From Naegleria gruberi (taxonomy: Eukaryota), in NCBI GenBank assembly GCA_000004985.1, contig GG739295.1: a stretch of DNA of 2,029 nucleotides; one strand, written 5' to 3'. The notes beneath the pieces are model-generated. The model was not told the DNA's origin, did no database searches, and was given only the letters and a program-made list of their open reading frames with translations. Position numbers and translations under genes: made by a program. This document shows, one piece after another, positions 1 through 2,029 of this stretch (the stretch's first letter is position 1; each line of letters starts with the position of its first letter).

Positions 1-118
1 CCAGTGTTCCTACAAAGTCGTGGTCTCTCATCAATTCAGAAGCAGATACTTTGGATGGTTCCTCCACTATCTCCTTCCACTTCTTACCAGCCTTCTTTAC
101 TTTATCTTGTGATGACAT
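1..118 (-). CDS. Partial 5' coding exon of a protein-coding gene that continues beyond the left edge. The N-terminus reads MSSQDKVKKAGKKWKEIVEEPSKVSASELMRDHDFVGTL... and is basic and lysine-rich. I do not recognise the product.
   Basis: The reverse complement of 1..118 is an open frame of 39 codons from ATG (118..116) with no stop before the window edge. The start context is A-rich (aacaataaaaaaATGtca), consistent with nematode-type initiation contexts. The in-frame sequence upstream to a stop at 200..202 has no further ATG and is not protein-like, so 118 is the first plausible start. Codon usage (AAG, GAG, GGA) contrasts with the flanking AT-rich non-coding DNA. It is missing from the ORF track only because the truncated length falls below the cutoff. 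Confidence 0.45.
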   Translation of the reverse strand, partial: MSSQDKVKKAGKKWKEIVEEPSKVSASELMRDHDFVGTL

Positions 119-436
119 TTTTTTATTGTTATAACTTTGATGGATGACATTTGCAAAAAGATTGCTAAACAAGTAAACAAGTTGATGAATTAGGTTGTAT
201 TATGTTCTGTAGATTTTTAATTCGTTTACTCTGAACTCAAATTTAACTGTAAAAATTCAATCAAACTTTTGTTTTTAAAAAGACTTTGTTGTGGAGACAA
301 TTTTTTTACTTTGGTGCGCTCAAAGTGTTCGTTACATTTATGATTTTTAAATTTATATAAAACCCTAATGATTGGCTGAGGTCTGTGTTTGTAAAAAATC
401 ATGGTGTTGAGTTTTGAGCATCAGTTTTGAACAAAT

Positions 437-468
437 CAGGTCCTCGATTTTTCGATTATCAGGACCTG
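437..468. repeat. Perfect 8-bp inverted repeat caggtcct / aggacctg with a 16-nt spacer (cgatttttcgattatc), which can form a hairpin or cruciform.
   Basis: Read directly: 437-444 caggtcct and 461-468 aggacctg are exact reverse complements. The spacer itself contains a tcgatt direct duplication (444-449, 452-457). The flanking word aatcagg recurs at 434-440, 457-463 and 479-486. Confidence 0.6.
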
Positions 469-521
469 TTTTTTCAATAAATCAGGTATCAAGTTTTCAA
501 AAATTTACTTTATTAAAATTT

Positions 522-552
522 TACAAGTCGAAAAATGCACAGTCGACTTGTA
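522..552. repeat. Perfect 10-bp inverted repeat tacaagtcga / tcgacttgta with an 11-nt loop. The core includes a SalI-type palindrome gtcgac and an adjacent tacgta palindrome.
   Basis: 522-531 tacaagtcga and 543-552 tcgacttgta are exact reverse complements. tacgta lies at 551-556. Confidence 0.6.
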
Positions 553-1104
553 CGTAATGGAAGAATGGTAATAATCTTACCTTCCAACTTCCTCCAAACC
601 AGATTCCGAGCTTAATTAATTGCGAGATGATAAGTTAAGGTGAAATTACAAAGTTACTTACAATTTGTCATTATGACACGAGCTCAAGTTTTGTTTCTAT
701 CTAATTTGAAACACTAAAGACTTGACACAAATCAAGTTGCAAAGTCAAACGCTAACAATTTGGATTGTGTGAATGAATTGAATTAATCAAATAACTTACA
801 ATTACCAAATAATCAAGAATCAATTCAGAAAACTAGAGTTAACTTCCCCATATACAGGTTAGTTGACTTGTGAATTATTGATAACAAAACTTAAGTGAAA
901 CTTACCTTGATTCAGTCAAAAAAGTCATTGTTTTATGATAAGATTTATTTCTTACTGAGAATATATTGATCATCATCCAATATATTAAGTATTTAAAGGA
1001 CAACCAAACATGCCAATGCCAATTTCAAATCCAACCGAATTCCATCAATCATTCGAGATTAGTTTACTCAAATAATAATTTAATTAATGAACAAATAATC
1101 ATCA

Positions 1105-1116
1105 TTCCGATCCAAT
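1105..1116 (+). repeat. 12-bp word ttccgatccaat. This is copy 1; copy 2 is at 1569-1580.
   Basis: cattccgatccaatctaataaag at 1103-1125 versus catgttccgatccaatattcaataat at 1565-1590. The exact 12-mer is shared, and both copies are preceded by cat and followed by an AATAA-containing tail. Confidence 0.5.
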
Positions 1117-1235
1117 CTAATAAAGTAGAACAACCAACCAACATGTTGTACTCAATCACAAACGTGCTGTCAGCAATTCAATCATTTTTTTAAATGTACA
1201 TTTTCCTAAAATAGAATTGGATCATTGTCTTTGAA

Positions 1236-1253
1236 ATTGTACAAGTCGAAAAA
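1236..1253 (+). repeat. Third copy of the gtacaagtcgaaaaa word, a direct repeat of 522-535.
   Basis: attgtacaagtcgaaaaa at 1236-1253 matches ttttacaagtcgaaaaa at 519-535 over 14 consecutive bases (tacaagtcgaaaaa). Its first 11 bases gtacaagtcga equal the reverse complement of 543-553. Confidence 0.55.
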
Positions 1254-1293
1254 CCTCTCCAGAACTGCTAGCATGATGTTGATCAGATACCTC

Positions 1294-1312
1294 TTTTTCA
1301 ATAAATTAGGTG
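1294..1312 (+). repeat. Direct repeat of 470-488: tttttcaataaattaggtg versus tttttcaataaatcaggta.
   Basis: 17 of 19 positions are identical when read directly. This is part of a larger set of shared words linking 437-555 and 1236-1345. Confidence 0.5.
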
Positions 1313-1445
1313 GCTGATTTCGAATTAATTGAGACAAGGTCCTCAAATCCTGAAAATAAGGTATCTGGTACAAAGCTTGCAAATAACCTCAAGAACAATT
1401 CTGAAGCTTGTTGAAAACCATGAGAGAAAGGCTACTTGTGTTCGG

Positions 1446-1568: not shown

Positions 1569-1580
1569 TTCCGATCCAAT
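1569..1580 (+). repeat. 12-bp word ttccgatccaat, copy 2. It is flanked by the 9-bp direct repeats tgtggtacc at 1537-1545 and 1590-1598.
   Basis: Read directly. Copy 2 lies inside a 44-bp segment bracketed by the two tgtggtacc copies, each of which contains a KpnI-type ggtacc palindrome. Confidence 0.5.
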
Positions 1581-1665
1581 ATTCAATAATGTGGTACCTG
1601 TTTTTCCGAAGAAGAGGTATTTGATTTTTCAAAAAGCACGATTTGGTCTGCAAAAAGAATAAATC

Positions 1666-1731
1666 TAGGTGCTAGATTTTTTGAAAAACAGCCATCTAAA
1701 TAATTATTAAATTTTTTAGGTGTTGGATTTT
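1666..1731 (+). repeat. 15-bp direct repeat taggtgctagatttt (1666-1680) and taggtgttggatttt (1717-1731). It lies ~130-200 bp upstream of the plus-strand ATG, within a region rich in T5-N-A5 elements.
   Basis: 13 of 15 positions are identical. Each copy is followed by ttga (gattttttgaaaaac / gattttgatcaaatc). Nearby are tttttcaaaaag (1625-1636), ttttttgaaaaac (1678-1690) and two agtgtttttttt copies at 1745-1756 and 1773-1785. Confidence 0.5.
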
Positions 1732-1843
1732 GATCAAATCAACCAGTGTTTTTTTTGATTTTCTGGGGTTAAAGTGTTTTTTTTTGGCTCCAGATAGGTT
1801 GTTTTTTGTAAATCCGGACCAAATCCCGTCATTAGGGATATTT

Positions 1844-1863: not shown

Positions 1864-1933
1864 ATGGAAGCGAATGTATTTGCGGCTGGTATGACCGATA
1901 ATTATGAATATCCAGCAGTAAAGAATCCGGGTG
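1864..1933 (+). CDS. First coding exon of a plus-strand gene. It reads MEANVFAAGMTDNYEYPAVKNPG, then one extra base (phase 1), then a GTAAGT splice donor. The product is unknown.
   Basis: ATG at 1864 sits in the A-rich context gaaaaaagATGg. The open frame of 23 codons ends exactly at a canonical 5' splice-site consensus G|GTAAGT (1933|1934..1939). If unspliced the frame would stop two codons later (ggt aag taa). An in-frame alternative ATG lies at 1891. The codon composition is distinctly less AT-rich than the upstream DNA. Confidence 0.4.
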
Positions 1934-1939
1934 GTAAGT
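1934..1939 (+). other. Canonical 5' splice donor GTAAGT, starting an intron that continues to the right edge.
   Basis: gtaagt follows immediately after the coding frame ...aat ccg ggt g. The downstream sequence (aaacgagcatcactacaaaattctcaagaagtttggcttttttg) is AT-rich and non-coding in character. Confidence 0.4.
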
Positions 1940-2029
1940 AAACGAGCATCACTACAAAATTCTCAAGAAGTTTGGCTTTTTTGTGATCGGAATGAATTTT
2001 GATCTATTTTTGTATGATGGTTATGGTGA

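Follow-up and report, generated by a model that had tools for sequence, protein, structure and literature searches.

Direct, internally palindromic short repeats account for an apparent inverted pair in a non-coding spacer of Naegleria gruberi

Introduction

A 2029-base stretch of Naegleria DNA, referred to here as the window, carries two blocks of about 110 bp (A, positions 437-555; B, positions 1236-1345) that share a set of short words and enclose some 680 bp. The words appear in opposite order in the two blocks, and an earlier note, made from the sequence alone, took the blocks for apparently inverted copies of one element, possibly a decayed foldback or MITE-like element or else a pair of regulatory modules. 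The locus thus raises the question of whether the blocks are inverted relative to each other, and of what kind of sequence they represent.

Genomic context of the blocks

The left edge of the window lies within a recognizable gene.

2-118, minus strand: exon 1 of the PH-domain/beta-helix protein gene NAEGRDRAFT_79952, 39 codons, ATG at 118

The translation of this exon (MSSQDKVKKAGKKWKEIVEEPSKVSASELMRDHDFVGTL) matches the N-terminus of XP_002676633.1 (NAEGRDRAFT_79952) at all but one of 39 residues and is 79-84% identical to the first exons of other Naegleria. The homologues were recovered by an exhaustive HMMER search, a word-index protein search with the 39-residue exon having given no match, and the PH-domain/beta-helix assignment of the homologous first exons came from cluster look-ups and a protein search. 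Positions 1-187 are also found, at 98.9% identity, in a same-species metagenome contig (L046) that ends at window position 187. The matches to NAEGRDRAFT_79952 and to this contig therefore identify the window as nuclear DNA of the N. gruberi complex. A phage or plasmid origin was discarded, as BLASTN gave no match, and searching collections of viral, metagenome and prokaryotic genome sequence for exact patterns returned chance matches of 17-23 nt only.

Positions 119-1863 form a non-coding spacer of about 1.75 kb, which contains all of the repeats described below. The window is 69% A+T, with GC values from 0.26 to 0.37. The enclosed 680 bp had been called its most AT-rich part, which is roughly correct, the stretch 101-400 being equally AT-rich (GC 0.255-0.27). 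Under the standard code the longest open frame in the whole window has at most 83 codons. Reassignment of TGA, TAG or TAA gave no convincing frame anywhere in the window, in any reading frame, and hidden coding under an alternative genetic code was rejected on this ground. A tRNA search of the window found none. Rfam gave nothing overlapping 421-555 or 1593-1748 and no match with E<1 in the window; a sub-threshold match to the lncRNA family ST7-OT4_1 over block B (1195-1383, minus strand) scored 16.4 bits (E=8.4), where the gathering score is 50.

The same position was compared in five related Naegleria loci (N. lovaniensis, L047; L041/L042; L043; L045; L044). In all five, exon 1 is preceded on the same strand by an RRM-domain gene of about 1000 amino acids, the end of which is 50-125 bp away, while the window has at this place 1.75 kb of unrelated non-coding DNA; the spacer is absent from each of the five loci. 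Their short upstream regions are without the motifs described below, in species that are distant from the source of the window (58-61% protein identity), and no family motif was found in 64 kb of other Naegleria loci. An RRM pseudogene within the spacer was considered and rejected, there being no RRM remnant. The DNA of N. gruberi exceeds that of N. fowleri or N. lovaniensis by about 10 Mb at a similar gene number, with 5.1% annotated repeats (PMC6125883), and a kilobase-scale unannotated spacer is therefore unexceptional in this organism.

Orientation of the shared sequence

All words quoted in the earlier note were found in the sequence. AGGTCCTC occurs at 438 and at 1337-1344, AGGACCTG at 461 and TTTTTCAATAAATCAGGTATC at 470, with TTTTTCAATAAAT recurring at 1294; TACAAGTCGA is present at 522 and 1240, and its reverse complement TCGACTTGTA at 543. 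The reverse complement of 1236-1345 reads GAGGACCT ... TTATTGAAAAAG AGGTATC ... TTTTTCGACTTGTAC, in the order previously given. The count of three for AGGTATC and its site at 484 were likewise correct, with the other two sites 1-2 nt away from where they had been placed, at 1359 rather than 1360 and at 1286-1292 (minus strand) rather than 1284. As had been proposed, the shared words are commoner than chance would have it: AGGTATC, TACAAGTCGA and AGGTCCT are each seen three times, against 0.13, 0.00 and 0.07 expected from dinucleotide-preserving shuffles. The word and motif counts were reached in none of 200 such shuffles, a kind of null that may overstate significance for real eukaryotic spacers.

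The direction of the similarity was examined by several routes, one of which, local alignment with shuffled controls, had been named beforehand as a check. Under strict settings, block A aligned with block B in direct orientation at a score of 33 (null 15.6 +/- 2.5, p<0.001) and in inverted orientation at a score of 22 (p=0.025), the latter consisting solely of the 11-mer TCGACTTGTAC, which is the only exact inverted match between the blocks. This 11-mer match exists because block A has a hairpin of that word (522-553). Self-BLAST with 400 shuffles placed two direct A/B pairs at the top of all direct pairs in the window: 513-535/1231-1253, with 21 of 23 positions identical (score 36, p=0.005), and 470-487/1294-1311, with 17 of 18 (p<0.0025). 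Exact 12-mer pairs in direct orientation numbered 8 in the window against 0.79 expected (p~0.002), and exact inverted 12-mers were not enriched over the whole window (1 against 1.58 expected). The inverted orientation proposed for the blocks is thus not borne out by their best matches.

A modular inverted alignment does exist, as had been described. When gaps are tolerated, 407-558 aligns collinearly with 1392-1236 over 105 identical positions, above shuffles (p<0.003). This alignment is secondary to the direct matches, because block A is itself palindromic and because the non-palindromic flanks of the words match only directly. In B the core of the word TACAAGTCGA is preceded by TTGAAATTG and followed by AAAAAC, which agree with the forward copy in A (TTAAAATTT ... 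AAAAAT) and not with its reverse copy, and TTTTTCAATAAAT(C/T)AGGT matches between the blocks in direct orientation only. The sequence shared by A and B is therefore real, and its primary orientation is direct.

The self-complementarity of block A is extensive, and the warning that palindromic words blur the orientation was well placed. AGGTCCT (438-444) pairs with AGGACCT (461-467) across a 16-nt spacer, and 427-477 aligns with its own reverse complement in self-BLAST. At 522-553, TACAAGTCGA (522) and TCGACTTGTA (543) form a hairpin with a 10-bp stem and an 11-nt loop. DNA folding gave z scores of -3.4 for 515-560, -4.9 for 420-560 (single-stranded DNA) and -4.9 for 1590-1735. A direct copy partly aligns with the reverse complement because the units hold small palindromes (AGGTCCT/AGGACCT, ACCT...AGGT, T5-C-A5 and the hairpin of TACAAGTCGA). 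A Helitron-like 3' hairpin at 522-553 was rejected, as no CTRR motif follows the hairpin.

A family of short direct repeats

The repeated unit is about 23-26 nt long and starts with a T-run, and two units make up a module of about 46-52 nt with the layout T-run, CAATAAAT, AGGT, N4, GATTTTTCAAAAA. In the best-kept version of the module, element E (about 45-50 nt), GATTTTTCAAAAA comes after a dyad, ACCT-N15/16-AGGT. Element E is present in direct orientation at 461-505, 1286-1330 and 1593-1637, and partial copies adjoin these sites. A second word, TACAAGTCGA(AAAA), termed K, accompanies the modules. With moderate confidence, we assign A and B, together with a third cluster, to one degenerate direct-repeat family (clusters ~405-555, 1185-1344 and 1593-1748), the last cluster lying outside the coordinates of the earlier note. 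The copies are as follows.

421-466, plus strand: module copy 1, with the dyad AGGTCCT/AGGACCT and a AGGTNNNNGATTT site at 438
461-505, plus strand: element E copy 1, with ACCT-N16-AGGT (464-487) around TTTTTTCAATAAAT, then AAGTTTTCAAAAA
513-553, plus strand: K word TTAAAATTTTACAAGTCGAAAAA (513-535) with an inverted partial copy TCGACTTGTAC (543-553), giving the hairpin 522-553
1231-1253, plus strand: K word copy 2, TTGAAATTGTACAAGTCGAAAAA, direct to 513-535 (21/23), with a degenerate module before it (~1185-1230)
1286-1344, plus strand: element E copy 2, with ACCT-N15-AGGT at 1289-1311, AGGTNNNNGATTT at 1308, then AGGTCCTC at 1337-1344
1593-1748, plus strand: third cluster, with element E copy 3 (1593-1637, ACCT-N15-AGGT at 1596-1618) and modules at 1648-1696 and 1700-1748

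Several motif patterns were set after the data had been viewed; the pattern AGGTNNNNGATTT, however, was tested on sequence outside its source blocks. A (438) and B (1308) suffice to define it, and three further sites (1615, 1667 and 1718) lie outside both blocks, all five being on the plus strand against 0.07 expected. The sites of the third cluster are spaced by 52 and 51 nt. The dyad ACCT-N15-18-AGGT occurs three times (0.06 expected), once in each cluster (464-487, 1289-1311 and 1596-1618), with the T-run on the same side of all three. The three stretches of about 58 nt around the dyads have a mean column identity of 75%, and six modules of about 46-50 nt can be aligned. Element E copy 1 is directly similar to 1290-1314 (19 of 25 positions), and its stretch 464-503 to 1596-1635 (41 columns, 76%). 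A collinear alignment of 469-535 with 1185-1253 supports the degenerate module before the second K word. Among the copies the AGGT and GATTT cores are invariant and the N4 between them varies freely, an invariance that is in part an ascertainment effect since those words served in part as anchors for finding the copies.

Head-to-tail tandem structure with a defined period was found for cluster 1 only. TRF reported a period of 23 for 425-487 (2.7 copies, 70% matches), and the autocorrelation of cluster 1 at lag 23 was significant after correction over lags (z=4.2, p=0.002); in 1590-1840 the periodicity peaked at 51-52 nt and was not significant alone (p=0.16). Clusters 1 and 3 align directly (p=0.003). 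An HMM built from the 1598-1748 modules only was run against both strands of 66 kb, of which 64 kb came from other Naegleria, and its best non-training matches were 426-464 and 1293-1323, both on the plus strand, at weak E-values of 0.08 and 0.44; cross-validated HMMs gave 0.08-0.8. Cross-validation supports one family across the clusters, at these weak E-values.

The word order of the blocks can be restated in these terms. Block A reads module-module-K, and in block B a degenerate module (1185-1230) is followed by K, a spacer and a module. The mirrored order needs no inversion, as either block could be a piece of a direct module-K arrangement, and among three words the prior for a reversed order is 1/6.

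The outer inverted repeat and the right-hand exon

The best inverted repeat of the window is a pair lying outside the two blocks, of which the right arm adjoins a putative exon.

344-398: left arm of the outer inverted repeat, core CCCTAATGA (363-371) with ATATAAAA before it, pairing with 1802-1860
1802-1860: right arm of the outer inverted repeat, core TCATTAGGG (1829-1837), ending 4 nt before the ATG at 1864
1864-1935, plus strand: putative first exon of a divergent gene, 24 codons (MEANVFAAGMTDNYEYPAVKNPGG) followed by GTAAGT

The arms align over 59 columns at 73% identity with a score of 32, which is marginal (p=0.028), and the core starts CCCTA.../...TAGGG. The ends of piggyBac elements start with CCCTA. 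In the window CCCTAATGA is preceded by ATAAAA and TCATTAGGG is followed by ATAT, the nearest TTAA lying 11-12 nt further out and inside the repeat on both sides; this separation of TTAA from the CCC/GGG core led to the rejection of piggyBac-like ends. At 344/1860 (flanks ...TTTATGA / AAGATGG...) there was no target-site duplication, and at the block edges 437/1345 neither a target-site duplication nor a sharp terminus. TATA-like sequences are present in the outer arms, and CCAAT in the left one, on the strand that faces the left gene. The codon-usage score of 1864-1935 is 5.6, comparable to the median of true coding windows, and no homologue of this putative exon was found in the related loci or the PDB. 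On the minus strand, GTAAG sites lie at 576-906; were these used as splice donors, block A could fall within a 5'-UTR intron.

Discussion

The blocks are, in our estimate with a probability of about 0.5, copies in the same orientation of a short repeat with internal palindromes, which arose by local tandem and segmental duplication and have since diverged and decayed. The suggestion that A and B are diverged copies of one element with accumulated indels was right in this respect. The family would have arisen inside the AT-rich non-coding spacer of the N. gruberi lineage. Replication slippage or unequal exchange may have produced the 23-nt tandem array at 425-490, and short segmental duplication may then have carried module-plus-K pieces to the other sites, where point mutation and indels would have reduced the copies to ~70-90% identity. 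The internal palindromes of the units would mimic an inverted relationship. We infer both this mode of duplication and that the repeats have no dedicated function. The invariant AGGT/GATTT with a free N4 resembles selection on a bipartite site, which speaks against neutral decay. The local-duplication model also treats the marginal flanking inverted repeat of ~55 nt (p=0.028) as a coincidence.

Among known systems, a degenerate minisatellite with dispersed daughter copies offers a close parallel, with head-to-tail units of 23 nt, a higher order of ~46-52 nt, a single orientation, 70-90% identity with indels and an AT-rich non-coding context. Unlike a minisatellite, the window has 2-4 units per cluster, in clusters 300-800 bp apart rather than in one array, its units contain internal dyads and a separate hairpin word, and a period is significant in cluster 1 only.

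The likeness to a MITE or foldback element is that the repeats are short, non-coding, AT-rich and hairpin-capable (z=-4.9) and that their similarity is modular with indels. Such an element is nevertheless not supported by the sequence: A and B are not inverted arms and match directly, the motifs lie on one strand (AGGTNNNNGATTT at 5/5 sites), there is neither a target-site duplication nor a sharp end, and family members lie outside the proposed element, at 1593-1748. Foldback arms built of opposed sub-repeats fit no better, since every one of the five AGGTNNNNGATTT sites and three E elements points the same way and inverted exact repeats are not enriched. The foldback reading is also weakened by the window's best inverted repeat being the different, outer pair 344-398/1802-1860.

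That the spacer is instead the relic of some other non-autonomous mobile element, with the modules as former transposase-binding or terminal repeats, appears unlikely, though it is a real alternative. One version would be a DNA transposon of ~1.5 kb bounded by 344-398 and 1802-1860 and containing subterminal repeat arrays, as in hAT, CACTA or piggyBac elements. The imperfect outer repeat, with repeat clusters just inside its arms and the core CCCTA, is what such an element would offer, and the annotation of N. lovaniensis includes PiggyBac and CMC-EnSpm elements (PMC6125883). The 1.75 kb of unrelated DNA at a place where five related loci have the RRM-domain gene 50-125 bp away, with no pseudogene of it left in the window, would also suit an insertion. 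Unlike in these transposons, however, neither TTAA nor another target-site duplication stands at the ends, the arms are only 73% identical and lack sharp termini, and no transposase remnant was found in the window. Subterminal motifs should moreover be mirror-symmetric, and the arrays here are not, with AGGTNNNNGATTT on the plus strand throughout; a further cluster lies in the middle, and a putative start codon stands 4 nt from the end of the right arm. The opposite-strand neighbour, if real, suggests rearrangement over simple insertion, and spacers of ~1 kb are in any case expected in N. gruberi. In a second version, clusters 1 and 3 would be the decayed terminal direct repeats of a TRIM-like element, for which their direct alignment (p=0.003) speaks. 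Sequences beside these clusters showed only vague resemblances to a PBS and PPT (TGGTAATAATC, GAAAGAAA), and these were discarded.

We regard as similarly doubtful that the modules are repeated cis-regulatory sites in the shared upstream region of two divergent genes, the second of the uses suggested in the earlier note. A dimeric DNA-binding protein would then recognise ACCT-N15/16-AGGT and/or AGGT-N4-GATTT, with the K hairpin serving as another palindromic site. The arrangement resembles the homotypic clusters of transcription-factor sites in bidirectional promoters: several bipartite or dyad motifs lie between divergent putative start codons at 118 (minus strand) and 1864 (plus strand), the third cluster lies from -270 to -115 relative to the latter, and each cluster has one dyad with the spacing fixed at 15-16 nt. 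The invariant cores around a variable N4 point the same way, as do the TATA-like sequences of the outer arms and the CCAAT that faces the left gene. The orthologues of the left gene in the five other, distant Naegleria have at most 125 bp upstream, free of the motifs, and lend no comparative support. The right-hand gene is putative, the invariance of the motif is in part the ascertainment effect described above, and the literature searched gave no Naegleria promoter motifs.

A more speculative thought, to which we give little weight, is that element E and the TACAAGTCGA hairpin could belong to an undescribed dispersed family of the N. gruberi lineage, either a new non-autonomous transposon, perhaps bounded by CCCTAATGA...TCATTAGGG, or the binding site of a lineage-specific dimeric protein.

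A chance coincidence of AT-rich words, for which one might cite the 69% A+T of the window, the many weak 10-16-nt repeats throughout it and the prior of 1/6 for a mirrored order of three words, is very improbable, as the shared words contain G and C, their counts were reached in no dinucleotide-preserving shuffle and the local alignment scores were matched by no shuffle or at most ~1%; at the level of such shuffles pure chance is excluded.

Conclusions

The apparent inverted pair turns out to be a set of direct, internally palindromic short repeats, and the importance of this result lies mainly in annotation. The spacer that houses them, absent from the related loci examined, lies at a gene junction that is tight in those relatives. 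For an organism with essentially uncharacterised promoters, the modules, if regulatory, might offer a first cis-element candidate. If E or K were present in many dispersed copies, a mobile-element origin would become more likely, and E dispersed genome-wide would provide a handle on the ~10-Mb non-coding gain of N. gruberi. Either reading of E and K as a dispersed family, if true, would mean that such repeats could have contributed to this expansion of non-coding DNA.

Gene order at the spacer

The non-coding spacer (119-1863), which separates exon 1 of the PH/beta-helix gene NAEGRDRAFT_79952 (2-118, minus strand) from a putative divergent ATG at 1864, departs in gene order from five other Naegleria loci. 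At these loci (L041, L043, L044, L045 and, from N. lovaniensis, L047), an RRM-domain gene of ~1000 aa lies upstream on the same strand, its end separated from exon 1 by 50-125 bp, and neither this gene nor a pseudogene remnant was found within 119-1863. The sole same-species contig found, L046 of the metagenome assembly ERZ929261, begins at the equivalent of window position 187 (its position 1), a break located 69 nt 5' of the start codon and shortly before the repeat-bearing spacer. The break could stem from assembly trouble at the repeats or else from low coverage.

Repeats and palindromes

The top inverted repeat of the window pairs 344-398 with 1802-1860 (73% over 59 columns, p=0.028), with a core of CCCTAATGA/TCATTAGGG and adjoining ATATAAAA/TTTTATAT; a target-site duplication was looked for at this pair and none was found. 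The left arm (344-398), on the strand that faces the left gene, NAEGRDRAFT_79952, reads AGCCAATCATTAGGGTTTTATATAAAT, a CCAAT- and TATA-like sequence. The earlier note had described two repeat blocks, A (437-555) and B (1236-1345), and TTCCGATC is a separate repeated word outside both, present in three copies against 0.04 expected (1105-1116 and 1569-1580, plus strand; 1985-1992, minus strand). In two of the three copies the match is longer, giving the 12-mer TTCCGATCCAAT; TCATTCCGATC occurs in inverted arrangement at 1102 versus 1985. An exact 12-mer, ATCAATTCAGAA, is common to exon 1 of the left gene (30-41) and the central spacer (819-830). Two perfect 12-bp palindromes are also present:

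1192-1203, palindrome AAATGTACATTT
1446-1457, palindrome CTCTTGCAAGAG

A snoRNA-like stretch

A 75-nt stretch on the minus strand (906-980) resembles a C/D-box snoRNA, with AUGAUGA towards its 5' end and CUGA towards its 3' end. Its match to SNORD36 is sub-threshold, at 19.7 bits versus a gathering score of 30 (E=6.9), and the stretch stops exactly at a consensus AAG|GTAAGT site.

Splice-like sites on the minus strand

Donor-like words are enriched in the window, with four occurrences each of GGTAAG (0.46 expected) and GTAAGT (0.84 expected). The donor-like sites cluster within the region between blocks A and B, and a pyrimidine-rich acceptor-like site is also present:

576-581, minus strand, donor-like site
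656-661, minus strand, donor-like site
794-799, minus strand, donor-like site
900-906, minus strand, donor-like site
~166-181, minus strand, acceptor-like site TTGTTTACTTGTTTAG

These sites may reflect a minus-strand transcript that is spliced, or a 5'-UTR intron, inside which block A would lie.
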